NCBI GenBank assembly: GCA_027064945.1
Contig: JAMOPB010000260.1
Coordinates: 1-43,894 of the forward strand
DNA length: 43,894 nt
Reading direction: 5' to 3'
From: Candidatus Cloacimonadota bacterium
Lineage (GTDB): Bacteria > Cloacimonadota > Cloacimonadia > Cloacimonadales > TCS61
This document shows positions 5,107-25,733 of the stretch, piece after piece (positions within the stretch are counted from its first letter, which is position 1; each line of letters opens with the position of its first letter). The translations under genes were made by a program, and so were the position numbers. Below the pieces are notes generated by a model that made no database searches, was not told the origin of the DNA, and was given only the letters and a program-made list of their open reading frames with translations.

Positions 5107-5111
5107 CATTA

Positions 5112-7542: not shown

Positions 7543-10500
7543 ATGAAATATTTTTTAAGAACCATTCTCATGGTTTTATTTATAATGCTTGTTTCAATTG
7601 TACACGCGACAGTGAACGTAGATGTTTTAAATTCTAATCAATCAAATCTAAAATTAAAAATCACTAGTAATGATTTTCAAATCGGAGAGAAAAAATTAGC
7701 GGATGGAGAACTATATTCAAAAATAACTCCTAGTTTAGGACAACTTTTACCGGGACAACCGGATTTACCTCAAATTATCAGATGGATAGCAATTCCAAGT
7801 GGAGGGAAAGTAGATGTTAGTTACACAATGAATTCAGGAAAAATTAATACAAATATCAATATAGCACCAGTGCAAAAAGCTTTGCAAGATAGAGCTAATG
7901 CACCCAAACCTGATTTCAAGAAAGATAACGGAGTTTATAATCAAGACGCTTTTTTCCCGCAAGAGCAAGTGAAAATAGAAAAAAGATTTTTCAAAAATGG
8001 GCAAGAATATGCCTTGCTTAAGATTTCACCTTTCCAATATAATCCAAAATCTCAAATTTTAAAGTTTAATTCAGAAATTGATATTGAGATTAATTTTATT
8101 GGAGGAAGAATTTCAGGAAAGGTAAGTAATGTTGCTGTTCTAAATAAGAATATTTTTTCTTCAGAACGTGAGGATAGAAATTACTTAGCAGAGATGATGA
8201 TTATCACTGATACACAATTTGTTGAATCTGTGGAAAATCTTGCTAAGTGGAAAAGAAAATTGGGCATTAAGACAAATATTTTCACGACTCAAGAAATTGG
8301 TGATACTGCTAATGCAATCGAAGAATTTATTGATTCCTATTGCGAGGAAGCCGAAACAATTCCTACTTATTTGTTGCTATTTGGTGATGCTGAATATATT
8401 CCAACTCATTACAAAACAGTTCATCCTTATACAGATGGTAATCAAGGTTACACAGCTGCAGATATCTATTATGCAGACTTTGAAGATGATATGCTTACCG
8501 ATATGGCATTTGGTAGAATTCCTGTAGATACTGTTGCCGAAGCTGATAGTATTATTTCCAGGATTATCCGATATGAAAAAAATCCACCAGCAGAAACAAG
8601 CTTTTATGAAAATGCGATTGCTGCTGCATATTTCCAAGAACAAGATAGTGGGAATGGAATGGCGGAAAGAAGATTTGCTAAAACAAGTGAAGATTTTAGG
8701 AATTTTCTTATTGAAGAAGAAGGTTACGATGTAGAAAGAATTTATATAACCGATTATAGTACAGAACCTCTATATTGGAATGATTCATCGTATGTTTTTG
8801 AAAATGATACTCCGGGAGGAGATTTACCTGAAGAATTAAAAAAGCCGTTTTTCCCATGGGATGGAAATGCTTCGGATATTATTAATTCTGTAAACGAAGG
8901 GAAATTCCTTTTGATGCATCGCGATCATGGATATCGTCAAGGCTGGGGAGATCCGGCATTTAATAATAATAATGTGAATAATATTAACAATAATTTCAAA
9001 ACTCCGATTGTTTGGACAATAAATTGTGAAACCGCTTGGTTTGATAATGAAACAGATGATCCTTCCTGTGGAACTTCCAATGATGCCGAAAGTTTTACGG
9101 AAGCTTGGCTAAGGCACGAAACCGGCGGAAGCGTAGGACTTATTGGTGCTACACGCGTTAGTTATTCCGGGAATAACGACAGATTGGTTTGGGGATTATT
9201 AGATGCAATTTGGCCGGGTTTTTTAGAATGGGCTCAAGCTGATTATCCTGAAAATGAACCAATTTACAGGATGGGAGATGTTATGAACTACGCTAAAGAA
9301 TATCTGTTGACCAGTTATTCTTGGGGAGACGATGTTTTAACTACTTCTTTAGAAGAATTTTCCTATTTTGGTGATCCAACTATGCGCATTTATACTGAAC
9401 AACCTGAAATTATCACTGCTTCTCATGTGCCGCTTGTACCTTTTGGAACGGATGAGATAATAGTAGAAACAAATATGGATGATGCTCTTGTTACATTGGT
9501 TTATGATAATGAAATTGTTGGAATGGCATATTCCGAAAACGGACAAGCAATTTTACAGGTTGATGGATTAAATTCGGAAGGAATAGCAGAAATAACAATT
9601 TCTAAGCATAATTGTGTTCCTTATGTCTCTGAAATAATGGTTGAAGCGGTTGGTGCATATATTATTGCAGAATTGAATAATATTACAGAAAATGGGGAAT
9701 ATATAGATGGATCAATTCAATCTTTGGATTTATTAAATTTTGATCTTAAATTGAATAATATTGGATCAGAGAGTTCTCAAAACTTAGAGTTAATATTAAA
9801 TTGTGAATCGGGATTTGTGGAGATTTTAGATAATCAAGCAGCAACTGAAAGCGCAGCTCTTAATGAAGATATAATTATTGAAAATGCTTTCCAAGTTGAA
9901 TTACTGGAAGGAATAGCTGATAGTACTTATATTCCGTTTGAAGTGATAATCTCTGATGGCGAAAATCAATGGGACAATGAATTTTCTGTATTTGTCCATG
10001 CTGCTAATTTAAAATATCAAGATTATAGCTTAGAGTTTGATGGTGATATTTTCTCACCTGGAGAAACAGCTTCATTATTCTTTGATATCAAAAATGTAGG
10101 AAGTGGATTTGCTTATGAAATAAATTCTGTTTTGGTTTCTGATAATGAATTAGTTACATTCGACGGATTGGATGTGATAGATTTTCTTGCTCCTGATGAT
10201 GTTGCAGAAACTTCCCAAGCTCTGAATATTACGCTTGCAGAAGTCTTTCCTATCGATTCTTTGCTAACTGTACAATTACAAATGATTGATATTGCGGAAT
10301 TGAGTTTTCAAAATCCTCTTTATATATTAATAGGCGTTAAAGGTTATGACTTGGAAAATGAACCTAATTGGAATCATGAATCTATTACTGAAAATTATGG
10401 TGATCAATGGCACTTATCTGACCAAGATAATGTTACACCATTAGGTAATTATTCCTATAAGTTTGGAGACACAGGAGATGGTAATTATGAAACATTGCAA

Positions 10501-11211
10501 CATGGAGCGCTTTATATTCCTGAAGTTGAATTGGAAGCTGGTGCGTTTCTAAGATTTTGGCATAAAATGAATGCAGGTCATCAAATTAACGAAATCTCTT
10601 GGGATGGTGGAATTGTAGAAATATCTGTCGATGGTTCTGACTTTGAACAAATTTATCCGATTGGAGGTTATCCTAATATCCTCTTGAATCTTCCTACTTC
10701 TCCTTTTGATGGTGATACCGAGTTTTATTCTGGCTTCTTTGATTGGGAAGAAGCAGAATTTGATCTTTCCGAATTTCAAGGTAATGCAATTATCAGATTT
10801 GTTTTTGGCTCAGCAAATATGCAAACTTCACTTGGCTGGTTTATCGATGATATCAGAATTGGCTCAAATGGTGAGATTAGTGATGCTGTGGATGATATGG
10901 TAGAATTACCTTTGGGAATTTCGAATTATCCAAATCCTTTCAATATTGCATCAAATAGATCTGCATCAACCAATATCAGATTTAGCGTACCGAATATTGA
11001 CGACGATAAAGCTGTAATTTCTATTTACAATTTAAAAGGACAATTGATTAAAGAGATTACAATAAAAATCCAAGCAAATAAAAGTAGCTTTTATCAGGTT
11101 GCATGGAATGGTGATGACACTAATGATAACAAAGTAAGCAGTGGTATCTATTTTTATCGATTAAAAGTTGGAGAATATTCTGCTTATAATAAAATGATGT
11201 TGATTAAATAA
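7543..11211 (+). CDS. Gingipain-like cysteine peptidase (family C25) with CARDB/Ig-like modules, a jelly-roll module and a T9SS-type C-terminal sorting domain (paralog 1)
   Basis: Signal peptide. C25 blocks YLLLFGDAEYIPTHY and ADIYYADFEDDMLTDMAFGRIPV. His-Gly in FLLMHRDHGYRQGWGDP (His codon 8926-8928) and Cys in VWTINCETAWF (8925 region; Cys codon 9025-9027). Tail NYPNPFN...ISIYNLKGQLI...VSSGIYFYRLKVG...NKMMLIK. Confidence 0.85.
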   Translation: MKYFLRTILMVLFIMLVSIVHATVNVDVLNSNQSNLKLKITSNDFQIGEKKLADGELYSKITPSLGQLLPGQPDLPQIIRWIAIPSGGKVDVSYTMNSGKINTNINIAPVQKALQDRANAPKPDFKKDNGVYNQDAFFPQEQVKIEKRFFKNGQEYALLKISPFQYNPKSQILKFNSEIDIEINFIGGRISGKVSNVAVLNKNIFSSEREDRNYLAEMMIITDTQFVESVENLAKWKRKLGIKTNIFTTQEIGDTANAIEEFIDSYCEEAETIPTYLLLFGDAEYIPTHYKTVHPYTDGNQGYTAADIYYADFEDDMLTDMAFGRIPVDTVAEADSIISRIIRYEKNPPAETSFYENAIAAAYFQEQDSGNGMAERRFAKTSEDFRNFLIEEEGYDVERIYITDYSTEPLYWNDSSYVFENDTPGGDLPEELKKPFFPWDGNASDIINSVNEGKFLLMHRDHGYRQGWGDPAFNNNNVNNINNNFKTPIVWTINCETAWFDNETDDPSCGTSNDAESFTEAWLRHETGGSVGLIGATRVSYSGNNDRLVWGLLDAIWPGFLEWAQADYPENEPIYRMGDVMNYAKEYLLTSYSWGDDVLTTSLEEFSYFGDPTMRIYTEQPEIITASHVPLVPFGTDEIIVETNMDDALVTLVYDNEIVGMAYSENGQAILQVDGLNSEGIAEITISKHNCVPYVSEIMVEAVGAYIIAELNNITENGEYIDGSIQSLDLLNFDLKLNNIGSESSQNLELILNCESGFVEILDNQAATESAALNEDIIIENAFQVELLEGIADSTYIPFEVIISDGENQWDNEFSVFVHAANLKYQDYSLEFDGDIFSPGETASLFFDIKNVGSGFAYEINSVLVSDNELVTFDGLDVIDFLAPDDVAETSQALNITLAEVFPIDSLLTVQLQMIDIAELSFQNPLYILIGVKGYDLENEPNWNHESITENYGDQWHLSDQDNVTPLGNYSYKFGDTGDGNYETLQHGALYIPEVELEAGAFLRFWHKMNAGHQINEISWDGGIVEISVDGSDFEQIYPIGGYPNILLNLPTSPFDGDTEFYSGFFDWEEAEFDLSEFQGNAIIRFVFGSANMQTSLGWFIDDIRIGSNGEISDAVDDMVELPLGISNYPNPFNIASNRSASTNIRFSVPNIDDDKAVISIYNLKGQLIKEITIKIQANKSSFYQVAWNGDDTNDNKVSSGIYFYRLKVGEYSAYNKMMLIK

Positions 11212-11718: not shown

Positions 11719-11734
11719 CGGAACAATTATTGCA
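11719..11734 (+). promoter_or_regulatory. Candidate sigma-54 (-24/-12) promoter of the pilin operon
   Basis: CGGAACAATTATTGCA versus consensus TGGCACG-N4-TTGCW. It has GG (11720-21) and GC (11732-33) with the exact 10-nt spacing and a full TTGCA -12 element. It lies about 50 nt upstream of the pilA ATG, and an NtrC-type activator is encoded 5 kb upstream. Confidence 0.6.
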
Positions 11735-11784: not shown

Positions 11785-12216
11785 ATGTTGAAAAACTTAA
11801 AAAATCAGAAAGGGTTTAGTCTTGTTGAATTATTGGTAGTGGTAGTAATTATTGCCATATTGGCAGCTATCGCTGTTCCTATTTACATGAGTTATGTAAA
11901 GCAGGCAAGAGCAACCGAGGCACAATCAGCTATCGCAGCAATTAGAAGCGCTTATAGAATTGAGCGTCAAACTTTTGGAACTGTAGAAAACTACACAATT
12001 GAAGATGCATTAAAAGATGCAAAACTTGGTAATCGTACAGAAAAGAACTGGGAATTTGAAGTTATCGGAAACCCACCAAGAACTTACATGGCTACTTCTA
12101 CTGCCGAATTCCCGGGTGGAGAAGGAAAACAGGTGTGGTATGATGTAGAAGCTGCTGAATATCACGGTTATGGTATTGATGAAGATGAACAAGATACAGA
12201 GGAAATTATTGATTAA
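11785..12216 (+). CDS. pilA: Type IVa major pilin (prepilin with class III signal peptide)
   Basis: MLKNLKNQKG|FSLVELLVVVVIIAILAAIAVP: short basic leader, Gly-1, Phe+1, Glu+5, hydrophobic alpha1-N. Strong RBS AAGGAGG. First gene after the sigma-54 promoter candidate. Confidence 0.9.
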   Translation: MLKNLKNQKGFSLVELLVVVVIIAILAAIAVPIYMSYVKQARATEAQSAIAAIRSAYRIERQTFGTVENYTIEDALKDAKLGNRTEKNWEFEVIGNPPRTYMATSTAEFPGGEGKQVWYDVEAAEYHGYGIDEDEQDTEEIID

Positions 12217-12233
12217 TAGTTGGAGGATTTTTT

Positions 12234-13289
12234 TTGACTATACGCGAACTACTTGAATTTACGGCAGCTGCCAATGCATCTGACTTGCATATTAGTACTG
12301 GATCTACTCCAATGCTTCGTGTGCACGGTCAAATGAAAAAATTGAACCTGCCTAAATCTTCATATGAAGAAGTTAAAGGTCTAATTTATAGTACCATGAA
12401 CGAGTCACAAATTGCTCTGTTCGAGGAAAAACTGGAAATTGACTTTTCAACAAAATTGGATGATGATACTCGTTTCCGTGTAAATGCTTTTCACCAAATC
12501 AATGGTATGGGTGTGGCTTTTCGTCTTATTCCAAATGAGATTAAAAGTTTCGAAGAATTACACCTTCCTGAAATTCTTAGTCGCTTAGCGATGAAAGAAA
12601 ATGGTTTGATTTTGGTGACTGGGCCTACCGGTAGCGGTAAATCAACTACACTGGCAACAATGATTGATCATATTAATGATTCTCGTCATTGCCATATACT
12701 TACAATCGAGGACCCTATCGAATTCGTACATAAAAGTAAGAATTCTTTAATCAACCAACGTGAAATCGGGCATGATTCATGGTCATTTACTGCAGCGCTA
12801 CGTTCTGCTTTACGTGAAGACCCCGATGTAATCTTGGTTGGTGAGATGCGTGACCTTGAAACTGTAAGTTTGGCATTAACTGCTGCTGAAACCGGACACT
12901 TGGTTTTGGCAACATTGCACACAAGTAGTGCAACAAAATCTATCGATAGAATCATCGATATGTTCCCTCGTGAACAGCAAGCTCAGGTTAGATCTATGCT
13001 TTCCGAATCTTTACGTGCTGTTGTAGCTCAGAAGCTATTACCTCGTAAGGATGGAGAAGGTCGTATTCCTGCATTGGAAATTATGATAGCTAACTCTGCT
13101 GTTAAAAACCTGATTCGTGAGGAAAAAACTTATCAGATACCTTCTGTTATCCAAGCTGGAACAAAAGAAGGTATGCAATCTATTGATCAATCTTTGTATA
13201 ACCATGTAATGAATGGTCTTTTGGATCGTCGTGTTGCTGAAGAAGTGGCAGACAATCCTAAGATGTTTATAACAGGGACGGCATTTTAA
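12234..13289 (+). CDS. pilT: Type IV pilus retraction ATPase PilT
   Basis: About 350 aa with PilT-like sequence throughout. N-terminus MTIRELLEFTAAANASDLHISTGSTPMLRVHG, Walker A GPTGSGKSTT, ILTIEDPIEF, LREDPDVILVGEMRD, AAETGHLVLATLHT, and the PilT-type AIRNLIRE-like motif SAVKNLIRE. TTG start 7 nt after GGAGG. Confidence 0.95.
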   Translation: MTIRELLEFTAAANASDLHISTGSTPMLRVHGQMKKLNLPKSSYEEVKGLIYSTMNESQIALFEEKLEIDFSTKLDDDTRFRVNAFHQINGMGVAFRLIPNEIKSFEELHLPEILSRLAMKENGLILVTGPTGSGKSTTLATMIDHINDSRHCHILTIEDPIEFVHKSKNSLINQREIGHDSWSFTAALRSALREDPDVILVGEMRDLETVSLALTAAETGHLVLATLHTSSATKSIDRIIDMFPREQQAQVRSMLSESLRAVVAQKLLPRKDGEGRIPALEIMIANSAVKNLIREEKTYQIPSVIQAGTKEGMQSIDQSLYNHVMNGLLDRRVAEEVADNPKMFITGTAF

Positions 13290-13774
13290 TGTTAAAAAAT
13301 AAATTTGATTCCGAAGCTGGCTTTGGGATTATCCAAGTTTTGGCAACTCTTGTTATTGCTAGTGTTGCCATTGCTGGACTATTTGTAACAAGTTATTATG
13401 TAAGACAAAAAGCAACTGAAAATTACCATACTAGAGTGGCGATATTACATGCTACCGAAGTTTTGGAAAAGATTAGATGGTTCAACAGAAATAACGAAGG
13501 ACCTGTGGATGTTACCCATATTCCCGGTTTGGCCGGTAATGTTGTTATCGAAAATCGCGATAACCATAATCTTATGGGCATAATTCAAAATCCTCACGTT
13601 TCTTATGGACAAGTTGATCTTATGGTTGCTCCCTATTGTATATATGATGCTGTTACAGTTGAAGTTACCTGGATTGAAGGTGCTGAAGATTCTTATGGCG
13701 AAACTGATAATAAAAGACGCTCTGTAGTTTTACGAGAAGATTATTATCGTAGAGCTGATATTGGAGGTGAATAA
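13289..13774 (+). CDS. Pilin-like (minor pilin/pseudopilin) protein with a degenerate class III signal
   Basis: DSEAG|FGIIQVLATLVIASVAIAGLFV: Gly-Phe junction plus hydrophobic helix, but Gln instead of Glu at +5. TAATG overlap with pilT. Confidence 0.55.
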   Translation: MLKNKFDSEAGFGIIQVLATLVIASVAIAGLFVTSYYVRQKATENYHTRVAILHATEVLEKIRWFNRNNEGPVDVTHIPGLAGNVVIENRDNHNLMGIIQNPHVSYGQVDLMVAPYCIYDAVTVEVTWIEGAEDSYGETDNKRRSVVLREDYYRRADIGGE

Positions 13775-14412
13775 TGGTTAAGAATCAAAAAGGTGTATCC
13801 TTAGTTGAACTTATCGCTGCAATCCCTCTTACAGTTCTGGTTTTTGTCATCCTTACAATGGCTGTTTCAAGTTTTGTAACAACTTATAAGGAAACCAGGC
13901 TTTATTTGCAATTGCAAGATGAACTTTACAATATGGTAGATCTAATACGTCACGGCTATATTGATGAGGATATCGAAGCAAGCGAAGGACTAATAGGGCT
14001 GATGACTGCAAATAAAGTGGAAATTAGTGGAGGCAGAAATATCATGACATTGCGACCTGTAATAATTGCTGAAGGTTTACCTGATGCATATAAAACTACT
14101 TTCTACGCTGATAGCGATGGGAGATTACTTGTTAGTGGTCAATATGGATTGAATAGTTTCCAGGAAACTCAAATATTCCCAAGTAGCAATATGAGAATTG
14201 GGCGTGAATTACAATTTCGATTAATCGATCAAGATGTTTTCACAGTTACCAAAAGAACTACTCATGGGCCTATTATGGTTAAATTACACTTCAAAGGACA
14301 AGTTCGCTTCCGAGAAAAAGAGCTAGGACAAAATCCTCTTGAAGATAAGAAATTGAATACAAGGATTGTTGAGTATAATACATCAGTCTTTGTTGGAAAC
14401 ACAAAAGGTTAG
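13774..14412 (+). CDS. Minor pilin with a canonical prepilin N-terminal cleavage/methylation motif
   Basis: MVKNQKG|VSLVELIAAIPLTVLVFVILTMAV (Glu at +5). TAATG overlap with the preceding gene. Confidence 0.75.
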   Translation: MVKNQKGVSLVELIAAIPLTVLVFVILTMAVSSFVTTYKETRLYLQLQDELYNMVDLIRHGYIDEDIEASEGLIGLMTANKVEISGGRNIMTLRPVIIAEGLPDAYKTTFYADSDGRLLVSGQYGLNSFQETQIFPSSNMRIGRELQFRLIDQDVFTVTKRTTHGPIMVKLHFKGQVRFREKELGQNPLEDKKLNTRIVEYNTSVFVGNTKG

Positions 14413-14423
14413 AAGGAGTAAAT

Positions 14424-16832
14424 ATGTTTAAAAAAATCAAAAAGCTTCTTCTTAACAAAAATTTGGAAAATGAAAAAGGTTCTATTGCCGCAATGGTAGT
14501 CGGTATTATAATTGTTTCGATAACACTTGCATCTAGTATCTCATTAATCGAAATGGTTAATTCAGATTCATTAATATTGGAATATCAGCAAGATGCTGTT
14601 CAGGAAGAATTGCTTTTGCGATCAGAAGCAGCAAGAACGCATATGGCTGTTGAATATAATGAAATGAGACCGATTCCAAATCGAGAAGTAGAAATCATAT
14701 CCAATAGTAATGATCGTAGAACTGTTTATAAAATAGAAAACAGTAAAGAGAATATATTTGTGAATAATTATATGGGATATGCTACTAAAAAGGTAGTTTC
14801 AATAAAATCTCATATAACTGCAAGACGCGGAAGATCTTATCAATTACATGATAAATCTCCGGTAGAGAGATTGTCAGAGAAACTTATATCGCATGAATCA
14901 TTAGCAGAATTTCAATATTTTACCGATGTTGAAGCATCTGAAAATGCTGATGGTGGACAAGAAGCTGCTGCTGTGAAGTTTTATGGTAAAGATGTTCTTT
15001 ACGGTAAGGTTCATAGTAATGATGATATATGGATTCAACAAGCCGGCGGTGGTAACAATAATGGTTGGCCAACATTCTATGAAATGGTTACAACTTCAGG
15101 TAAATTTAAGAGATATCCGTCAGGAGAAGATTTGATCGGTAGTGGTGTATCGACTGATGAAATATTCGTTGGTGGCTTTGAAGAAGAAGTTCCACCGATT
15201 GTATTTTCTGCAACTATGACAGATATTAGGGATAATGCAGATAAATTTTTTGGCAATACATCCACATCCGATATCGGGTTTGTTTATCTTAACGGTGGTT
15301 CTTATCAGGGCTTAATCGGAGATAAATATTTAGTTGATATTATGGAATTTCCTGTGTACAGTTGGTATCCTTCTGATGCGGGAATGGTTCAGAATGCTAT
15401 TAATGACGGTGTGAATTGGTTTGAAGATAGTGAGTTAATATGGACAAATTCAATCGCTATTTATGATACTGTCTGGACTCCACGTTCCGGTGCTGTGAAT
15501 AATAATTCTGTCTTTGTAGATGGAAAACTTTATATTTATGGAAGGCCGGGCGGGAAACAAACATGGGGTGCTTCTGATACTGTGTTTGTAGTAAGCGACA
15601 TTGTTTATTATACAAATGAATTGGGAGATTTTCCTGACGGCTATGCAGGTTTAGACGAGGAAGGTGAACCTCAATATGATCTTGATGAAGTTAATCCAAC
15701 TGATTTCTTCGGATTAGTATCAGAAGAGGATATTTTAATTGCATATAAATATAAAAATCCTGAAACCGGAGAGATTATTGATCATAATTGCGATGGAATA
15801 TATCTTTACGGAGCTTTTGCTGCAATAGGAAAAGGTGATGAGGATATTCACGCGGAAATGGCGTGTCATCATGATGGTATATTCTCCTTTGAATATCATC
15901 ATCCAGCCGGATCAACACCAAATTTCCATAGTATAAGTCCATATTTAATGGAGACATACACGCTTAAAATGATTGATAGCTCTGCTAATGGTTGGGAGAA
16001 TGCTACAATCGACTTGTATGTAAACGGAGAACTTCGAGAAGAAGATTTAACTTGTACTGGAAGTGAAACTGATGTTGATTTTAATCTCGAACATATGGAT
16101 ATATTAGACCTTATCTACACTCCGGGCGATGCCGGACATGAGAATGAACATAGTTATCAAATTGTAGATTCAGATGGGAATATTGTAGTTGCCGAAGGTC
16201 CTAATCCGGCACAAGCAGCTAATTTTCAATGTGTTGTGACTGAGTTTTCAGATACTCTTTATACATACATCGATCTACATAAATATGTTTATCCTCCAAA
16301 TCCACTTCTGCCTGAAGAGCACCAAGGCTTTAACTTACAAAGTAATGGATTAGCCGGTGGCGGGTATCCGTATGGTTTGGTTGGATATCCTTTTGAATCA
16401 TCTTTAATCCCAACAGCATATGTGAATTCCTACCCGAATGCGGGACCAAATTTTGTTTATCCCGATGGGACAGATATTCCTTGGTATAATCCGATTTGGC
16501 CGGAACCATCTACATCTGTTGGTGAGGATGTTTTCTATTATGATGGAAGAAATGCTCGTATTTATGGAGCTATAGCACAAAGACGTCGTGGATTTATACG
16601 TCGCTCAGGTACTGACCCATATAATCATCCTAATCCGCTCGATACAGATGAAAAGCTATATCATTATGGTAGAACGCATGATCCTACAGGATATGATAAA
16701 GAATATTATTACGACAGGCGATTTTTATTTGAACAACCACCTGATTACCCCGAAATATACCGTGGTTGGGGATCAAATGATATTACATCATTTACTTCAC
16801 AAACCTGGTATTTCAAACCAATTGGTGATTAG
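14424..16832 (+). CDS. Large (802 aa) PilX_N-type pilin-like protein; candidate pilus tip or priming-complex component, function unknown
   Basis: N-terminus NLENEKG|SIAAMVVGIIIVSITLASS resembles the PilX N-terminal (ERGSxLxxALxxL) type of anchor. The rest has no motif I recognise. The C-terminal third is very rich in Tyr/Pro/Asp/Gly/Asn. It sits between the minor pilins and pilM. Confidence 0.5.
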   Translation: MFKKIKKLLLNKNLENEKGSIAAMVVGIIIVSITLASSISLIEMVNSDSLILEYQQDAVQEELLLRSEAARTHMAVEYNEMRPIPNREVEIISNSNDRRTVYKIENSKENIFVNNYMGYATKKVVSIKSHITARRGRSYQLHDKSPVERLSEKLISHESLAEFQYFTDVEASENADGGQEAAAVKFYGKDVLYGKVHSNDDIWIQQAGGGNNNGWPTFYEMVTTSGKFKRYPSGEDLIGSGVSTDEIFVGGFEEEVPPIVFSATMTDIRDNADKFFGNTSTSDIGFVYLNGGSYQGLIGDKYLVDIMEFPVYSWYPSDAGMVQNAINDGVNWFEDSELIWTNSIAIYDTVWTPRSGAVNNNSVFVDGKLYIYGRPGGKQTWGASDTVFVVSDIVYYTNELGDFPDGYAGLDEEGEPQYDLDEVNPTDFFGLVSEEDILIAYKYKNPETGEIIDHNCDGIYLYGAFAAIGKGDEDIHAEMACHHDGIFSFEYHHPAGSTPNFHSISPYLMETYTLKMIDSSANGWENATIDLYVNGELREEDLTCTGSETDVDFNLEHMDILDLIYTPGDAGHENEHSYQIVDSDGNIVVAEGPNPAQAANFQCVVTEFSDTLYTYIDLHKYVYPPNPLLPEEHQGFNLQSNGLAGGGYPYGLVGYPFESSLIPTAYVNSYPNAGPNFVYPDGTDIPWYNPIWPEPSTSVGEDVFYYDGRNARIYGAIAQRRRGFIRRSGTDPYNHPNPLDTDEKLYHYGRTHDPTGYDKEYYYDRRFLFEQPPDYPEIYRGWGSNDITSFTSQTWYFKPIGD

Positions 16833-16888
16833 TTTCATATAACCCGTGAATATAGAAATTTTAGTTAAAAAGATAAACGAGAGGTAAT

Positions 16889-17959
16889 ATGGCGAAAAAG
16901 AAAGCTAAAAAGTTTAAAGAGTCTATTGGTTTAGATATTGGTAACCATAGCATTAAATTGGTTCACCTTAAAAAAATACACCAAGGCTATAAACTTTTGA
17001 ATTATGAAGTAAGATCAACAATTCCCGAAGGACATGAATCAAGTCTTTCAGATCTTTCTTCAGATAGATTTGCGCCGATTTTATCCGGAATGCTGAAGTC
17101 GATGAAAATTAATCCAAAGAAGGTAAAACATTTAGTTTCTTCTATTGGAGGCGACGATACAAGTATCAAGCAAATTAAAACAATTTTCTTGCCGGATGAT
17201 GAATTAGAATCAGCGCTTTTCTTCGAAGCAAAAAAGCACCTTCCTATTGGCGGTGCTGAAATGCTCCTGGATTTCCAAGTTGTAAGTGTGGAAGAAAAGA
17301 CTAATAATATGAATGTATTATTGGCAGCTACCACTAAAACAATGCTTAAAGAACATACAAGAATATTATCTAATGCCGGCATGGAAGCAGGTATTGTAGA
17401 TATGGAATCTTTAGCGGTAGCTAATAGCTATTTCCTAAATAATGCTTTGGAAGATGGCGTTTATATTCTTCTAAATATTGGAGCATATAAGACTAATATG
17501 GTGATTTGTGGACCTAATGTGAAAATCTTCGCACGTGATATTGGTTACGGTGGATTCCACATCTCTAAAGATATTGCTAAGAAAAATAAAGTTTCTTTTG
17601 AAGAAGCTGAGAAAATCAAATTTGAATATGGTATAAAGGAAGTTGCCAAGAAAGCAGAAACAAGTTCTTTGCTTACATTGGATATCTCCGACAAAACCCC
17701 TGCAGAGCAAATAGCAATGGAAGTGAAACGTTCATTAAGATTTTATGTGAAAGAAGCTGGTACAAGCGATTTCCGTAAAATAGTTTTAATGGGTGGATCA
17801 GCCAAAACAATTGGTTTAGCAGAGTATATTTCAGAGCAACTCAATATTCCAACTGAAGTATTTAATCCATTTGAAAGTATCGAGACTAGCGGTAGTTTCA
17901 GTGACATAAAAGATCCGCAATATGCTGTAGCTCTGGGTCTTGCTATGCGTCCGGAATAA
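16889..17959 (+). CDS. pilM: Type IV pilus assembly protein PilM (actin-like ATPase fold)
   Basis: IGLDIGNHSIKLVHLKK N-terminal phosphate-1-like motif, about 355 aa, VLMGGSAKTIGLAEYISEQLNIPTEVFNPF near the C-terminus. Followed by pilN/O/P/Q-like genes. Confidence 0.85.
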   Translation: MAKKKAKKFKESIGLDIGNHSIKLVHLKKIHQGYKLLNYEVRSTIPEGHESSLSDLSSDRFAPILSGMLKSMKINPKKVKHLVSSIGGDDTSIKQIKTIFLPDDELESALFFEAKKHLPIGGAEMLLDFQVVSVEEKTNNMNVLLAATTKTMLKEHTRILSNAGMEAGIVDMESLAVANSYFLNNALEDGVYILLNIGAYKTNMVICGPNVKIFARDIGYGGFHISKDIAKKNKVSFEEAEKIKFEYGIKEVAKKAETSSLLTLDISDKTPAEQIAMEVKRSLRFYVKEAGTSDFRKIVLMGGSAKTIGLAEYISEQLNIPTEVFNPFESIETSGSFSDIKDPQYAVALGLAMRPE

Positions 17960-17969
17960 GGGAGTTTTT

Positions 17970-18557
17970 ATGAGTCAATTTTTTTATAAAATTAATTTAA
18001 ATAAATACGGTGAGCTTAAACAGCAAATCGAACGACAAAAGAAAGATTTTTTGAATATATCTATTACATTCTTAATAATTACAGCTGTTATGGTTGGTGG
18101 ATTATTTATGTTGAATGGAATGTTGAAACAGAAAATCCAATCGCGTCGTGAATTGCTCGCTAAGATCAAAAAAGAGATTAAATCTTATCAAGTAAGCGGA
18201 GAATATCTTTCTTCAAATGACTTAAATAGAATCGCAAAAGTAAGTTCGGAACGTATATTCTGGGCAAAAAAATTAGTAGCTCTTTCTGAAAAGACTACCG
18301 ATAAAATTGCGATAACTCATTTTGCTTATAAGAATGGTAAATTAAGCCTTTTTGGAATTACAAAATTGGACAAGAATGAGAAAGAATTTGATCTAATTGA
18401 TGAATTTATTAAGAATTTGAAATCTAATGAACATATTAGTTCTGATTTCCCAAATATTAGTTTTGTGAAGTCTTCTACTGATTATGAAAAAGATGTTGAA
18501 ATTCTTAGATTCCAGATAGATGCAACTGTAAAAGATGAGCCAAAGAGGAGGAAATAA
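17970..18557 (+). CDS. pilN: PilN-like pilus assembly protein (bitopic)
   Basis: N-terminal FYKINLNKY resembles the PilM-binding INLLP motif. It has a single TM (ITFLIITAVMVGGLFML) then a coiled coil. ATG 17970 follows GGGAG and avoids overlap with pilM, unlike the listed 17940 start. Confidence 0.65.
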   Translation: MSQFFYKINLNKYGELKQQIERQKKDFLNISITFLIITAVMVGGLFMLNGMLKQKIQSRRELLAKIKKEIKSYQVSGEYLSSNDLNRIAKVSSERIFWAKKLVALSEKTTDKIAITHFAYKNGKLSLFGITKLDKNEKEFDLIDEFIKNLKSNEHISSDFPNISFVKSSTDYEKDVEILRFQIDATVKDEPKRRK

Positions 18558-19102
18558 TGAAAAATAAATATATGATCCTTTTACTCATCATAATTGTAGT
18601 TGGAGCAGGTTTTTTCTATATTGGAAATGAAGTTATTTCTAAAAAAGTAAGAAAAATTAATGCTTACGATAAGAAAATTAAAGAAGAACAAGAAAAATTA
18701 AATAGCGCGAAAGTGTTGAATGAACAACTTTCTGAAGTTTCAAAAGTTATTTTAGCTAGTATTACCGACAAAAGAGAATATAGCCCTGAGGAGATTAATG
18801 CTTTTGTAAAAAAATTAGCTGATTTAGCTGATAAATATGAAATCACAGTAAATGCTGTAGTTCCAAAAGTTGTTAGTGGATTAAACAGACACTATGTGGA
18901 ACAGCAATATACGTTAGAAATTAACTGTACTTTTGTACAATTGGGTAAATTCTTAACCGAATTGGAAGGTTTTGATAACATTATGGAAATTAACACGTTA
19001 ACTGTTAATCCTATTCCTACGGAAAATTCATCAGAACTTACCGATACTCGCTACCGTGTATCAATTCTTCTTACTACTGTGAAGATTGTGAAGGAGGCAT
19101 AA
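18557..19102 (+). CDS. pilO: PilO-like pilus assembly protein (bitopic)
   Basis: Single N-terminal TM (YMILLLIIIVVGAGFFYIG), a coiled-coil segment, then a small alpha/beta C-domain. The call rests on position between the pilN-like and pilQ genes; TAATG coupling. Confidence 0.5.
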   Translation: MKNKYMILLLIIIVVGAGFFYIGNEVISKKVRKINAYDKKIKEEQEKLNSAKVLNEQLSEVSKVILASITDKREYSPEEINAFVKKLADLADKYEITVNAVVPKVVSGLNRHYVEQQYTLEINCTFVQLGKFLTELEGFDNIMEINTLTVNPIPTENSSELTDTRYRVSILLTTVKIVKEA

Positions 19103-19647
19103 TGGAAAACAAATATCTCAAAGATTTTATAATTATCGTAGTGGTATTGTTGGTCATTGCCTTTGGATGGTTTGATTATTATAACTATAATAAGGTAGAA
19201 AAAATCCCACAAGAATCAAAGTATAAGAAATTAGCACTTAGCGAGAAATTACTCGAACAAATCCAAAGTATTGAAGAATCTATTAAAGATAGAAAATCTT
19301 TTGTATTTACAGTGGAAAAAGATCCTCTTGAGCAAAATCTTATTGTGAAAACAATTAAAGATTTAGAAAAACAATGGCGTGAAGAAGTAGAAAAATTGAT
19401 TCGTTTAGAATCTACAATTATCACAGAATCAGGCGAAAATTTAGCTTCTATAGCTCATAAAGGTGAGAGTAATTTATATAAGGTTGGCGATGAGTTTATG
19501 GGTAGAAAAATTACAAGTATAGAAAGTGGAAAAATTAGCTATACTTATAGAGGAACTAACGGAGTTCTCTATGTAACGGAATTACCTGCTAAACCTGAAG
19601 CAATCGAAAGAAATAACAAAAAAAGTAAGAACGTACCTAATTGGTAG
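19102..19647 (+). CDS. PilP-position protein (N-terminal TM anchor rather than lipobox)
   Basis: The call rests on position directly upstream of the secretin, size (181 aa) and a beta-rich C-terminus (YKVGDEFMGRKITSIESGKISYTYRG). No sequence motif is diagnostic. Confidence 0.35.
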   Translation: MENKYLKDFIIIVVVLLVIAFGWFDYYNYNKVEKIPQESKYKKLALSEKLLEQIQSIEESIKDRKSFVFTVEKDPLEQNLIVKTIKDLEKQWREEVEKLIRLESTIITESGENLASIAHKGESNLYKVGDEFMGRKITSIESGKISYTYRGTNGVLYVTELPAKPEAIERNNKKSKNVPNW

Positions 19648-19664
19648 AGAAGGAGAAACATACA

Positions 19665-21056
19665 ATGAATTTTAATATTAAAAGATTTGTGGCTTCGTTA
19701 ATTCTGGTTTTATTTATCTCTAGCTCAATATTTGCAGCAGATTTAGAGCTTTTAAATAAGAAAATCAGTATTGACGCGAAAGATGCAGCTGTATCACAAA
19801 TTATTTCAACAATGGCTAACCTTAGTGGTTGTAATATAGTCTTAGCAGTAGATACTGAAGGTGATGAAAATAAAAAACCAAGCGAAAAGAAAATCACTAT
19901 TCATTTAGAAGAAGTTCCTGTTGAACAAGCTTTATCATTAGTAGTTAAATCAATTGGACTTTCTTATCGTTTAATTGGTGATAGAACTTTCTTAGTTGGT
20001 GATAAAACAAAAATTGAAGAAGAGATTGGTGAAAGATCTTATGTTGTAGAATTGAATTATGTTGATGCAGAAAAAATTAAATCAGCTTTTGAAATCATGC
20101 CCGGTGAAATCAATGTAATTGAGGGTCAAAACTCTCTTCTTATAAGTGCAAATCCAAACACATTCGCTGAAATCAGCAAAAAAATAGAAATAATAGATGT
20201 CCCTCAAAAACAGATCGAAATCCAAGCTCGCTTGATCGAAGTTTCTGTGAACGAAGCTGAAAAACTTGGAATTGATTGGTCTCGTTTAAGCCAATTAACA
20301 ACAATCTTAGCTGAAGATCCTGTTAATTCTAATGGTATTGGTTTACCATATAATTTTGATGATGTTACCGGTGAAACACCTTATGGTCAATTATCTTCAC
20401 TTGGTACATTACCGGAAGATCAATATTTCCAAAAATTAGATGAACTTGATGATATTGGTAAATTCTCTCGTCAATTAACAGCTTTTGATGTTACACTTGA
20501 TTGGTTGATGGAAAATAATGCTGCACAATTACTTACAAATACAAGAATTACAGCAAAAAATGGTGAAGAAGCTGAAATTCATATTGGCGAAGTTGTGCCT
20601 TTCGTTGTAAAAGATGATGATAACCAAATCCAAGTGGAAAGAGAAGAAGTTGGTATCAAACTTAAAGTTAAACCGACTATCAACAAAGATGGTTATATCA
20701 CAACTGTTTTAGAACCTGAAGTAAGTTCAGTTATCGAATTAGTTGGGGGATATGTTCCAAGAACTAAGGTAAGAAGAATCACATCTACAGTTACTGTTCC
20801 TGATGGTAAAAAAATTGTAGTTGGCGGACTTTTAAATTCTACTATTAGTACAAAAGTAAGCAGAGTTCCTCTTCTTAGTAGAATCCCATTTATCGGGAAA
20901 TTATTTACACATAAATATGAAGTTGTAGATAATACTGACCTTATTATTGAGATTACTCCAAGAGTTGTAACATTTGAAAATGCAGATGTAGAATATGATA
21001 TCGATCCTCGTTTAGAGCGTGAGATAATTAAAAAAAAAACAACTGATGAAGAGTAG
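19665..21056 (+). CDS. pilQ: Type IV pilus secretin PilQ
   Basis: Signal peptide. N0-like domain (ISIDAKDAAVSQIISTMANLSGCNIVLAVD...ITIHLEEVPVEQALSLVVKSIGL). Secretin core ITSTVTVPDGKKIVVGGLL...VSRVPLLSRIPFIGKLF...DLIIEITPRVV. ATG 19665 with AGGAG RBS is preferred over the listed TTG 19641. Confidence 0.9.
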   Translation: MNFNIKRFVASLILVLFISSSIFAADLELLNKKISIDAKDAAVSQIISTMANLSGCNIVLAVDTEGDENKKPSEKKITIHLEEVPVEQALSLVVKSIGLSYRLIGDRTFLVGDKTKIEEEIGERSYVVELNYVDAEKIKSAFEIMPGEINVIEGQNSLLISANPNTFAEISKKIEIIDVPQKQIEIQARLIEVSVNEAEKLGIDWSRLSQLTTILAEDPVNSNGIGLPYNFDDVTGETPYGQLSSLGTLPEDQYFQKLDELDDIGKFSRQLTAFDVTLDWLMENNAAQLLTNTRITAKNGEEAEIHIGEVVPFVVKDDDNQIQVEREEVGIKLKVKPTINKDGYITTVLEPEVSSVIELVGGYVPRTKVRRITSTVTVPDGKKIVVGGLLNSTISTKVSRVPLLSRIPFIGKLFTHKYEVVDNTDLIIEITPRVVTFENADVEYDIDPRLEREIIKKKTTDEE

Positions 21057-21069
21057 ATAGGGAGTTAAA

Positions 21070-22620
21070 ATGAAGAAAAAATTATTGTTAATAATTGCAG
21101 CTACAATGCTACTTTCGTTGGTAGTGTTTTCAGGTTGTGATGATCGTTCTGTAGCATTAGATGATATTAATATCGCTACGATGAATGTTAGTCCAAGCGA
21201 ACTTGTAGTTGGCGATACAGTAACATGTTATGTAAGAGCAATTTTACAAGATGATGATGGATTTGCTGTAACAAATACAAAAGTTATTTTCAAATCTGAT
21301 CTTGGTAGCATGAATCCTGCAAGTGTATTTTCAGATAGTTCAGGTGTTGCTAAAGTGAAATTTGATTATAGTACAATAGAAGCTGTTCCAGAAAATGATG
21401 TCGTAATTGAAGCTTATGTAAAAGATAAAGATAGCGGAATTATGAATTCTACAAACGTGACTTTTGGTTCTCCTGCTATTCCTGAAGTAAATTCTCTTCA
21501 GTTTGACGAACAACCAATTAGTTTGCAAGTAGCTGGTACCGGTGGTCCGGAATCAGCTGATCTGAATGTAACAATTTACGATTATCAGGGTGCACTTATT
21601 ACTGAACCAATGGAAATTGCTTTCTGGTTCGATATGACAAAAACTACTGCAGATGATGCAAAAATTAATAACGAAGTTGCTATTTCTGAAGATACAGCAC
21701 AAATTGTTACATCAGTTGATGGTGTTGCTTCTGTTTCTATCTCTTCAGGTATCAAGTCCGGTAATGCTACTGTTGTAGCAAAATCTGTGGCTAATGGTAT
21801 TGAAGCTGTGAAGGGTAATATTATTGTACAAGCTGGTGCTCCTGAAACTGTAGAATTTGTAATGCCAGGTCATAATACAGGTGAAGATATGGGAGCCGGT
21901 ACTTGGAAAGTTCAAATTGCTGCTCTTATCAATGATACATATGGTAATCCTGTTGGTGACGGAACAGCTGTATTCTTCCAAATAGAAGATGATGATGAAA
22001 TAACTTATGCATCATTAGAAACTCAATATTGCTATGTTGGTAACGAAAATGCTGCAGGTGATACACTTGCAGGAACAGCATTTACGTTCTTAAACTATGA
22101 TGGTACACATACAAATGATTCATTTGATATTTCCGTACAGGTTGGCGGTGTTGATTTCCCACCGGAAACAATTACACTTCCAATTCAATTCCCGGTATTG
22201 GAAGTTGTTCCAGTTCCTCAACACTTGGATTGGAATGTTCAAAATGATAATTCTGATAAGACTACAGAGCTTAATATTGTAATTACTGATGGACAGCAAA
22301 ATAGAATCAATAAGCAATTAATCTATGCTACCGGAACATTAGGATATCCTGAGCTTCAAACAGAGCCTGAACCTGATCTTCCTGCTATAGTTGATCTTGG
22401 TTATGAATTAGAAGATAACGATAATAGTTACAAAGGTGTTACCTATTTTGTAGATGGTATTGGTGGTAGATTAACAAAACCTTATTCTTTCTATAAAATC
22501 GAATGCCCTGCTCCATCTCAAACAGGTCCTGGTACTACTACTGCAAATATAACAATTACTATTCCCGGAACAAATACAAATGCTAACGCGAATATTATCC
22601 TGTTCCGTTATGTTGACTAA
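21070..22620 (+). CDS. Multi-Ig-like (Big_1/invasin-type) lipoprotein embedded between pilQ and pilB
   Basis: Lipobox LVVFSG|CDDRS. Repeated Ig-like segments (VGDTVTCYVRAILQDDDGFAVTNTKVIFKSDLG...SGVAKVKF; ADLNVTIYDYQGALITEP; GNATVVAKSV; WKVQIAALINDTYGNPVGDGTAVFF). 13-nt gap after pilQ and 9-nt gap before pilB. Confidence 0.6.
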   Translation: MKKKLLLIIAATMLLSLVVFSGCDDRSVALDDINIATMNVSPSELVVGDTVTCYVRAILQDDDGFAVTNTKVIFKSDLGSMNPASVFSDSSGVAKVKFDYSTIEAVPENDVVIEAYVKDKDSGIMNSTNVTFGSPAIPEVNSLQFDEQPISLQVAGTGGPESADLNVTIYDYQGALITEPMEIAFWFDMTKTTADDAKINNEVAISEDTAQIVTSVDGVASVSISSGIKSGNATVVAKSVANGIEAVKGNIIVQAGAPETVEFVMPGHNTGEDMGAGTWKVQIAALINDTYGNPVGDGTAVFFQIEDDDEITYASLETQYCYVGNENAAGDTLAGTAFTFLNYDGTHTNDSFDISVQVGGVDFPPETITLPIQFPVLEVVPVPQHLDWNVQNDNSDKTTELNIVITDGQQNRINKQLIYATGTLGYPELQTEPEPDLPAIVDLGYELEDNDNSYKGVTYFVDGIGGRLTKPYSFYKIECPAPSQTGPGTTTANITITIPGTNTNANANIILFRYVD

Positions 22621-22629
22621 GGAGTAATA

Positions 22630-24336
22630 ATGGCTTTTAACCCACAATTTGCACAACTTGGAGAAATCTTAGTACATGAAGGTTACATTAATAATCAACA
22701 ATTAGAAGAAGGTTTAAAGAAACAAAACAACTTTGGTACTAAGATTGGTGAAACCCTTATCAAGTTGGGTTACTTAAAAGAGAATGAATTGCTCAGCGCA
22801 CTCCAGCAACAGCTGGAGTGTGATGTGATTCGTGAAAGCGAGTTACTTGAGCTTGATGAAAATATAGTGAAATTAATTCCGGAACCATTTGCTGTCGAAA
22901 ACAGAGTTCTTGCTATCAGAGATATCGGAGATTCTATGATTGTCGCTATGACAGATCCTGAAAATGTCGTTATCCAAGATAGTTTGCAAAAAATGGTTGG
23001 AAAGAATGTGATTCCTACTCTTATCGGTGAATCTGCTCTTACTGATGCTTTGGAAAAGTATTATAAGAGTATTAGAACTTCATCTCAAGTAGATGATGCT
23101 GTAGGAAATTTCGATTTTGTAGCTGTTGATGAAGAAGAGAATGAGATATCAATCGACTCAAGTCAAGAAGTTGATGCTCCTGTTGTGAAATTGGTAAATC
23201 TGATCATTACAGAAGCTATCAAATCTAATTGTACAGATATTCACATTGAACCATTAACTAAGCAAACAAGAGTTCGTTTCCGTATTGATGGCGCTTTACG
23301 TGAAGTTATGACTTCTCCTATTGGAATGCATGCCGGTCTTGTATCCATTGTAAAAGTAATGTCAAAATTGAATATTGCTGAACGTAGATTACCTCAAGAT
23401 GGTCATATCTCATTAAAAACATCTATCAAAAGTGTGGATGTTCGTGTATCTATTACTCCTACCGTAACAGGTGAAAAAGTTGTGATGCGTCTTTTGGATA
23501 AAGGTGATTTTGGATTTAGTCTTACAAGTCTTGGATTTACAGAAGCTAACCTTGTTATGTTCAAGAAATGGATTAAACGTCCTTATGGAATTAACATAGT
23601 TTCCGGTCCTACCGGTAGTGGTAAATCTACCACTTTGCATGCTGCTCTAAAAGAGATTATGGATATCGAAAACAACATTATCACAGTGGAAGATCCTGTA
23701 GAGTATCGTCTTGATGGTATTACTCAGATCGAAGCTAATGAGAAGATCGGTCTTACTTTTGGTTCAGCACTTCGTTCTGTATTACGCCAAGACCCTGATG
23801 TTGTTCTTATTGGTGAGATTCGTGACGAAGAAACAGCAGATATTGCTGTGAAATTCTCACTTACCGGTCACTTGGTATTTTCTACATTGCACGCTAATGA
23901 TGCACCTGCTACTATCACTCGTTTGATAGATATTGGAATTGCACCATATTTAGTGGCTTCATCATTGAATTTGGTGATGGCTCAGCGTTTGATGAGAAAA
24001 GTTTGTCCAAATTGCATTACAGATTACAAACCTACAGATAAGGAACTGCAATTGGCAGGAATTAGTGAAGAAGAAGCAAAAAATATCAACTTCAAAAAAG
24101 GTGTTGGCTGTGTTCATTGTGACAATACTGGTTATAAAGGTAGAACAGGTATCTTTGAGATGTTGGAATTAAATTCAGAGATAAGAAAATTGATATTTGA
24201 AGGTAAGAACCAAGATATTATTAGAGATAAAGCATTGGAAAATGGAATGGAAACATTGCATGATGCAGCTGTAGCTAGGATGAAACTTGGAATTACTTCA
24301 ATTCAAGAAGTTATTAAATTAACTATCTCTGATTAA
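22630..24336 (+). CDS. pilB: Type IV pilus assembly (extension) ATPase PilB with an N-terminal MshEN/T2SSE_N domain
   Basis: Walker A GPTGSGKSTT, ITVEDPVEY, LRQDPDVVLIGEIRD, LTGHLVFSTLHAND, tetracysteine CPNC...CVHC. N-terminal tandem 24-residue LGxxLVxxGYIxxxxLxxxLxxQ motifs. Confidence 0.95.
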   Translation: MAFNPQFAQLGEILVHEGYINNQQLEEGLKKQNNFGTKIGETLIKLGYLKENELLSALQQQLECDVIRESELLELDENIVKLIPEPFAVENRVLAIRDIGDSMIVAMTDPENVVIQDSLQKMVGKNVIPTLIGESALTDALEKYYKSIRTSSQVDDAVGNFDFVAVDEEENEISIDSSQEVDAPVVKLVNLIITEAIKSNCTDIHIEPLTKQTRVRFRIDGALREVMTSPIGMHAGLVSIVKVMSKLNIAERRLPQDGHISLKTSIKSVDVRVSITPTVTGEKVVMRLLDKGDFGFSLTSLGFTEANLVMFKKWIKRPYGINIVSGPTGSGKSTTLHAALKEIMDIENNIITVEDPVEYRLDGITQIEANEKIGLTFGSALRSVLRQDPDVVLIGEIRDEETADIAVKFSLTGHLVFSTLHANDAPATITRLIDIGIAPYLVASSLNLVMAQRLMRKVCPNCITDYKPTDKELQLAGISEEEAKNINFKKGVGCVHCDNTGYKGRTGIFEMLELNSEIRKLIFEGKNQDIIRDKALENGMETLHDAAVARMKLGITSIQEVIKLTISD

Positions 24337-24346
24337 TAAAATTATT

Positions 24347-24370
24347 GCAGTGCTAACTATTTAGCACTGC
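24347..24370 (+). other. Intra-operon hairpin between pilB and pilC (10-bp stem, 4-nt loop)
   Basis: GCAGTGCTAA-CTAT-TTAGCACTGC, followed by GGATTTATTA, which is only a weak U-tract. Confidence 0.55.
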
Positions 24371-24397
24371 GGATTTATTAAATTATAAGGAAAATTT

Positions 24398-25651: not shown

Positions 25652-25673
25652 TAGGAAGTAAGAAAATAATAGA

Positions 25674-25704
25674 TCAGGGGTTTAAAAGCGAATTTTAAAC
25701 CCCT
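25674..25704 (+). other. Intra-operon hairpin between pilC and pilD (13-bp stem)
   Basis: CAGGGGTTTAAAA-GCGAA-TTTTAAACCCCTG, followed by CTTCTTAAAT with no clean U-tract. Confidence 0.55.
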
Positions 25705-25733
25705 GCTTCTTAAATATAAATCGGAGAATTTTA

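Follow-up and report, generated by a model that had tools for sequence, protein, structure and literature searches.

The gene at positions 14424–16832 of a 43,894-nucleotide stretch of DNA from a Candidatus Cloacimonadota bacterium (contig JAMOPB010000260.1 of assembly GCA_027064945.1, here called the window) encodes an 802-aa protein that is probably a K-type minor pilin, equivalent to GspK, PilX or PilK, of a type IVa pilus. It would be a modular pilin that caps the pilus tip. This assignment is made because the protein has a pilin leader, lacks glutamate at position +5 (Glu5), has a pilin-like head in its structural model and fills the third slot of a gene trio, after a GspJ-like protein, in a conserved synteny. 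The sequence-only reading of this DNA had proposed a tip or priming subunit in place of the PilX and PilY1 set, and on these grounds that proposal is the best supported. The open reading frame (ORF) was confirmed: it has 802 codons and an ATG start on the forward strand, is preceded by a GAAGGAG Shine–Dalgarno sequence and has a base composition like that of the adjoining genes. The ORF is real and conserved.

A search of 5.8 billion proteins returned 167 relatives; those with a named source were all from Cloacimonadota metagenome-assembled genomes (MAGs), except one labelled Armatimonadetes. An exhaustive profile search gave about 197 clusters (50% identity) at E ≤ 1e-30, the more distant named members again being from Cloacimonadota. 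The 802-aa protein consists of a head (residues 1–155), a bipartite core of about 550 aa (155–518 and 608–776), an insert (519–607) and a tail (777–802), and its relatives show three architectures. Proteins of the first (about 760–810 aa) are collinear with it and contain the insert, and those of the second (about 600–700 aa) have the same plan without residues 519–607. Proteins of the third (about 900–1030 aa) have a Sec signal, a different N-terminal domain and C-terminal immunoglobulin (Ig)-like and type IX secretion system (T9SS) sorting domains; they have only residues ~155–518 and 608–776, the core, in common with the 802-aa protein, at 44–51% identity.

The N-terminus reads EKG/SIAAMVVGIIIVSITLA, where the slash marks the putative cleavage site, and the EKG-type start with Met at +5 that had been reported earlier was confirmed by translation. 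The class III (prepilin-type) leader, recognised by its motif and in homologues, comprises residues 1–19 (14424–14480), ends at Gly19 (..LENEKG/S) and gives way to some 20 hydrophobic residues (..NEKG/SIAAMVVGIIIVSITLASSISLI). The same order, a short, mostly basic leader, Gly at –1, then Ser, Ala or Gly and about 20 uncharged residues, was found in 82 of 83 pilin-anchored homologues. At +5, 82 relatives have Met (46), Ile (15), Leu (11), Phe (6), Val (2) or Tyr (2) and none has Glu; a +5 residue other than Glu, as in cap pilins, is thus present in the 802-aa protein and in all 82. Five pilus loci were compared, those of the window, L001, L005, L007 and L008, and within each the leaders of the major pilin, the I-slot and J-slot pilins and the 802-aa-type (K-slot) protein are nearly alike. 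In L007, for example, they are FKNQKG/F for the major pilin, LKSDKG/F and LKNEKG/V for the two small pilins and LKNEKG/S for the K-slot protein. Judged by motifs, the case for a pilin-type N-terminus is strong.

The AlphaFold2 model of the 802-aa protein, made from the family alignment, has a mean predicted local distance difference test score (pLDDT) of 87.2 and a predicted template modelling score (pTM) of 0.77. Secondary structure assigned with DSSP shows a 60-residue helix, α1 (residues 18–78, 14475–14657), then strands within residues 87–155 (14682–14888), and then a large β-rich body. The hydrophobic half of α1 (residues 20–45, with Met at +5) is succeeded by the conserved motif QEELLLRSE, and Q60, R66 and R71 are invariant. 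In the model, this order of helix and then strands would be the pilin arrangement. A hidden Markov model (HMM) of the head (residues 45–160) matched 115 of 117 proteins of the first two architectures and had no significant match in any of 112 long proteins. When the head alone served as a profile, to look for it in fusion with other modules, only five fragments came back.

At the other end of the protein, a linker (residues ~777–793, of low pLDDT at 783–793) leads to a terminal β-strand at 795–798 (TWYFKP; linker and strand at 16752–16829). We propose, by analogy with known systems, that this strand acts as an in-cis donor strand completing the pilin sheet. The tail motif W-x-[FYL]-[KR]-x-P, sought in the last ~20 residues, occurs in 101 of 117 pilin-anchored proteins versus four of 112 long proteins (those above 850 aa, essentially of the T9SS class). 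As both head and tail are kept in the pilin-anchored forms and are missing from those T9SS-class paralogues in which the core is retained, the sequences indicate that head and tail are one co-inherited unit wrapped round a portable core. Mean-field direct coupling analysis, with ~93 effective sequences and with indel artefacts dominant, placed 30 of 45 partners of the tail in the head versus ~48% expected, an excess that does not convince.

Exactly three pilin-like genes lie between pilT and pilM, as had been noted earlier, and they are all encoded on the forward strand: an I-slot gene for a 161-aa protein (13289–13774; AG/FGIIQ, without Glu5), a J-slot gene for a 212-aa protein (13774–14412; KG/VSLVE, with Glu5) and the gene for the 802-aa protein in the K slot. 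The trio follows the genes for a 143-aa major pilin (11785–12216; KG/FSLVE, N_methyl match at 3.1e-10) and a 351-aa PilT-type retraction ATPase (12234–13289; T2SSE match at 1.6e-52). The gene order pilin, PilT, 161 aa, 212 aa, 802-aa protein, PilMNOPQ, lipoprotein, PilB, PilC and PilD is kept in Cloacimonadota; the same synteny is found in unrelated MAGs of the phylum, where the trio again runs from pilT to pilM, and the 161-212-802 aa order is kept in all five loci.

The 802-aa protein is the third gene product of an I-J-K set in which the J slot is validated by its fold and the I slot is assigned by position. A search for relatives of the 212-aa protein found 30, from Cloacimonadota wherever named. 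The sole credible PDB match of its AlphaFold model (pLDDT 87.4) was Thermus thermophilus Tt1219 (5g23), a full-length 'type IV-like pilin', with probability 1.0, template modelling (TM) score 0.41–0.48 over ~205 columns and E 3e-3. Tt1219 is closest to the type II secretion system (T2SS) pseudopilins XcpW/EpsJ/GspJ and adjoins TTHA1220, which is over double its size (PMC5131608). On its model the 212-aa protein would be a GspJ-like minor pilin in the J slot. TTHA1220 is presumably ComZ.

Elsewhere the K slot is multiplied: it holds proteins of 778 and 671 aa in L007 (7001–11417) and of 620, 612 and 612 aa in L008 (7091–12699). The I-slot and J-slot genes stay single where the K slot holds one to three paralogues. 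This fits K-slot paralogues that are exchangeable tips.

The I-J-K gene order is almost invariant in known systems, and the sheet of the K subunit needs completion by a terminal β-strand (Ellison et al., PMC13533445). K-type minor pilins in which a very large insertion precedes the C-terminal donor strand, and whose systems have no tip adhesin, are known from Thermus (ComZ), from Caulobacter (CpaL) and from V. cholerae (PMC13533445, PMC6561018). By analogy, the 802-aa protein fits this K-pilin plan in having no Glu5, a place in the K slot, a head, an insertion of ~620–640 residues, a low-confidence linker and a terminal strand, and no PilY1. The same architecture having already been described for ComZ and CpaL, the 'new class' of the sequence-only reading has to be given up: the protein belongs to a phylum-specific new family of K pilins of the ComZ/CpaL type, in which a giant module is nested. 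Novelty lies in the family itself, in its unrecognised core and in the presence of the same core in T9SS cargo.

One of the nearest known counterparts is ComZ. It too is a large pilin-like protein whose gene stands right after those of GspI-like and GspJ-like minor pilins, and its GspK-like module contains a very large domain before the last β-strand; ComZ is argued to lie at the tip (PMC6561018). It was overlooked by PilFind, as the 802-aa protein is by pilin HMMs, and its neighbour Tt1219 is the structural match of the 212-aa neighbour here. However, the ComZ insertion is a triangular β-solenoid of ~380 residues, whereas the core of the 802-aa protein is irregular, has ~550 residues and shows no similarity to it in sequence or by Foldseek; no ComZ or ice-binding-protein-like solenoid was found in the PDB matches. 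ComZ binds DNA for competence, but nothing about the 802-aa protein points to DNA, and the Thermus cluster has more minor pilins than the window locus.

CpaL/TadG of the Caulobacter Tad system has the same plan of an N-terminal minor-pilin-like domain, a long middle and, at the very C-terminus, a strand that is proposed to close the pilin sheet in cis, without a PilY1-type adhesin (PMC13533445). CpaL, however, serves a Tad (type IVc) machine, whereas the 802-aa locus is of the type IVa kind, with PilMNOPQ and PilT, and no homology was detected; in-cis docking has experimental support for CpaL and would be predicted for the 802-aa protein. GspK/XcpX and PilX/PilK are like the 802-aa protein in having no Glu5, in being encoded by the third I-J-K gene and in being proposed as first subunit and cap. 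Besides a terminal strand of its own, GspK also has an extra domain, but this domain, of ~180 residues and α-helical, is inserted mid-sheet, unlike the insertion before the last strand in the 802-aa protein; PilX/PilK are small and, again unlike the 802-aa protein, depend on PilY1/PilC in trans.

Raynaud et al. defined 'modular pilins' and predicted many more with modules outside the databases (PMC8179133). In PilB (vWA) and PilC (lectin) of S. sanguinis a pilin carrier bears a grafted effector module thought to be exposed at the tip, as proposed here for the 802-aa protein (PMC8179133, PMC9934059). Those pilins have canonical N_methyl, Glu5 and recognisable domains appended at the C-terminus, whereas the module of the 802-aa protein is nested, unannotated and common to T9SS cargo. 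PilY1/PilC also combines a large tip effector with a terminal-strand donor, and the 802-aa protein likely fills the same niche; PilY1, however, is not a pilin but has a Sec signal and a C-terminal β-propeller (PF05567/IPR008707), neither of which was found in the 802-aa protein with Pfam and Foldseek. No PilY1/PilC domain was found by Pfam scan anywhere in the pilus locus.

A mechanism can be suggested from these comparisons. PilD, the prepilin peptidase encoded in the same locus (25734–26522), would cleave the 802-aa protein after Gly19, and its head would be completed in cis by the C-terminal strand 795–798. With the 161-aa and 212-aa minor pilins the head would form an I-J-K complex for initiation, from which the 143-aa major pilin begins to polymerise, and the 802-aa protein would thereby end at the distal pilus tip. 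The body of ~550–640 residues between the head sheet and the last strand would be an effector shown at the tip, and tandem K-slot paralogues in other genomes would be alternative tips for one machine.

Several results weigh against this assignment. No match to PF07963, TIGR02532 or PF14341 (PilX_N) was found in the 802-aa protein or 28 relatives at E ≤ 5–10, and none to PF03934 (T2SSK) in the protein or its relatives. The resemblance to the PilX type would then lie at the level of motifs only: of the earlier description 'PilX_N-anchored', the likeness in motif stands and the family membership does not. When the full model was compared with the PDB by Foldseek, GspK, ComZ, CofB and every other pilin were absent at a useful score. 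Only its position places the 161-aa protein in the I slot, and this protein is unusual in being without Glu5, which GspI/PilV-type pilins normally have. The I-slot pilin lacks Glu5 in all five loci, with Gln, Ala or Ser at +5 (genes at 13289–13774 in the window, 6851–7348 in L001, 6842–7315 in L005, 5845–6336 in L007 and 5989–6420 in L008), and the J-slot pilin keeps it; two pilins of the tip trio, that of the I slot and the 802-aa protein, are thus without Glu5. Finally, no gene for a fourth minor pilin of the GspH/FimU type was found in 11785–26522. With a Glu5-less I slot and no H type, the tip complex may differ in detail from GspHIJK.

Three other explanations were considered, and all are less likely than a K-type cap. 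The protein might instead cap a short T2SS-like pseudopilus of a machine devoted mainly to protein secretion; the 161-aa, 212-aa and 802-aa proteins would then form a GspI-J-K tip, and the big body would touch substrates or gate the secretin. A trio without an H subunit does recall GspIJK logic, the best structural relative of the J-slot protein is nearer to T2SS pseudopilins than to other pilins, the major pilin has a sub-cutoff GspG match, the PilP-slot protein has a weak GspC match and many exported proteases are encoded near the locus. However, PilT, PilM/PilN/PilO and an MshEN-bearing PilB, with no GspL, GspM or GspH found by domain scans of the locus, make up the parts list of a type IVa pilus, and the nearby proteases that were scanned bear T9SS sorting domains and hence have their own export route. 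A pseudopilus is therefore unlikely.

It is similarly improbable that the 802-aa protein is an uncleaved bitopic inner-membrane protein, serving as a periplasmic assembly accessory outside the filament. This would account for the missing pilin HMM matches and the missing Glu5, and the body, which adds ~70 kDa to the head, is large for a secretin to let through; yet ComZ and PilY1 are similarly bulky and have been placed at pilus tips. Gly at –1 is invariant and the leader is like those of the co-encoded pilins, neither of which favours a bitopic protein. The same core is taken to the cell surface by T9SS in the paralogues, which implies an extracellular role, and the variable copy number and optional insert suit a part that is exposed and diversifying, and do not suit a component of the machine. 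Least credible of all is an ordinary Sec signal cut by signal peptidase I (e.g. after ..LASS) to give a soluble periplasmic or secreted protein, of which the 802-aa protein shows no sign: the small residues A-S-S do follow the hydrophobic stretch, but it is very unlikely because the leader has a long n-region ending in a pilin-type KG, the ~23-residue hydrophobic stretch runs into the conserved 60-residue helix with Q60, R66 and R71 (modelled with high confidence), and the true Sec paralogues of the third architecture lack the head and have a typical signal unlike a pilin leader (MKK, short h-region, ..SAQF).

The core that the K-type cap pilin would carry is encoded in two parts. The first (residues 155–518, 14886–15977), delimited by homologue alignment, has pLDDT mostly above 90. 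The second (608–776, 16245–16751) is Tyr/Pro-rich and loop-rich in the model, with many invariant His, Arg and Asp residues; it is among the most conserved parts of the protein and is common to all homologue classes. The sequence-only reading had described the C-terminal ~200 aa as rich in Tyr, Pro, Asp, Gly and Asn. Enrichment held for Tyr (12%) and Pro (11%) and not for Asp, Gly or Asn, and a low-complexity tail as explanation of the C-terminal third was rejected, since the Tyr/Pro-rich region is conserved core. Across 107 sequences the core has 48 invariant positions, many of them His, Asp, Arg or Asn, which suggests that it has a definite site for binding or catalysis and is not a spacer. 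Since paralogues export it via Sec and T9SS, the core has to function extracellularly. It would most likely bind a ligand or a surface and might possibly be a metal-dependent enzyme.

The exported paralogues that have the same core and T9SS sorting domains are ~970–1000 aa long. In locus L003 (1653–17007) they form a tandem array of five ~1000-aa genes beside a β-helix T9SS protein. A Pfam scan of the 802-aa protein found no PF18962/FlgD_ig-like sorting domain with a Sec signal, the signature of T9SS cargo, and no paralogue of the core was found elsewhere in the window.

Searches with Pfam and NCBIfam at permissive thresholds gave no match for the whole 802-aa protein or its N-terminal 166 residues and nothing usable when 28 and 16 family members were scanned singly, in agreement with the earlier remark that no PilY1 propeller, vWA or lectin motif can be recognised. 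Sequence-profile searches of the PDB with whole-family, head, J-slot and insert alignments gave FlgD alone, which comes from the T9SS tail of the paralogues, and when the full model was compared with the PDB by Foldseek, nothing matched at E ≤ 1e-3. The PilY1 propeller, the ComZ solenoid, GspK and a generic β-helix were rejected as core folds, none being among the Foldseek PDB matches. No confident match to a PilY1, ComZ or minor-pilin family emerged from either HMM or fold searches, so that the kind of match which might have overturned the earlier proposal did not appear. DUF4900 (PF16241; gathering cut-off 29.4 bits) has no match in the 802-aa protein. In distant relatives it scores a sub-threshold 14–23 bits over ~50 residues that map to ~155–225, the first ~70 residues of the core; these tags were set aside as uninformative, and a literature search gave nothing on DUF4900.

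The optional module between the two parts of the core (519–607, 89 aa, 15978–16244) was delimited by its presence or absence in homologues. It contains the segment (SSANGWENAT...EGPNP) that the sequence-only reading had singled out as a discrete β-sandwich, a suggestion that was borne out: the module is present in homologues of ~760–810 aa, is cleanly absent from those of ~660–690 aa and from T9SS-tagged ones, and is all-β in the AlphaFold model. It occurs in 28 of 117 pilin-anchored homologues and in no other class, with the consensus D.GGDGW.GA.LDV..NG, and it matched no Pfam family, apart from a faint PPC match in two of 16 members. It may be an undescribed family of small β-sandwich domains. 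A disulfide within it was rejected, as Cys544 is conserved and Cys603 is not. Foldseek against the PDB gave only weak matches to small jelly rolls (CBM35, CBM51, C1q/TNF, EclA), and the BFVD gave four matches of 100–130 columns, again to small domains only; these probably reflect the 89-residue insert, the tables being without query coordinates. The BFVD matches are proteins of uncultured phages ('signaling protein', 'peptidase', a T9SS C-terminal-domain protein), with up to 29% identity.

A further, more speculative idea is that the core represents a novel extracellular fold whose active or binding site is conserved and rich in His, Asp and Arg, that it is deployed in two unrelated ways, nested in the cap pilin of a retractile pilus and by T9SS surface display, and that K paralogues swap tips. 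If so, the pilus would be a probe that can be drawn back, bringing an enzyme or receptor to substrates or partner cells at a distance.

The K-type assignment would provide an independent, phylum-wide case of pili without a PilY1-type adhesin building the adhesin into the cap pilin, and would support the terminal-strand 'licensing' design as a general one. It would also offer an initial way into the function of an uncharacterised family (~200 clusters at 50% identity), multi-copy T9SS surface proteins of Cloacimonadota among them. Cloacimonadota are common in anaerobic digesters and sediments. Since standard pilin detectors overlook such subunits, the minor-pilin sets of uncultivated phyla are probably under-annotated.

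The rest of the pilus locus completes a full set of type IVa parts, all on one strand. Domain scans identified PilM, PilN, PilO, a PilP-slot protein and the PilQ secretin at 16889–21056, and PilB (MshEN and T2SSE), PilC (T2SSF) and the PilD prepilin peptidase (A24) at 22630–26522. The weak match of the PilP-slot protein (19102–19647) is to GspC_delta. PilB (22630–24336) has an MshEN domain, which is of the type that binds cyclic di-GMP. Between the PilQ and PilB genes lies the gene for a lipoprotein (21070–22620, forward strand; ..LVVFSG/C) with Big_1/Invasin_D3-like Ig domains. In Cloacimonadota pilus loci such a lipoprotein gene is always 3' of the secretin gene, its product being 490–894 aa in other genomes, and the lipoprotein may be a secretin-associated or surface component.

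A sigma-54-type –24/–12 element (cGGaAC-N5-TTGCa) is found at 11719–11734, ~50 nt upstream of the ATG of the major pilin, the frequency of such matches across the window being not above chance. Upstream (3340–6473) lie genes for a PAS histidine kinase and for a sigma-54 activator (PilS/PilR-like). On either side of the pilus locus (7543–11211 and 29996–35299) a C25 (gingipain-like) peptidase with T9SS sorting domains is encoded. A third ORF starts to be open at 38635 and runs past the window end at 43894, for which reason the ORF list lacks it; its product, of at least 1753 aa, has a Sec signal, and by eye its N-terminus is like a C25 propeptide. The organism of the window recurs in hydrothermal-vent and marine-sediment metagenomes.

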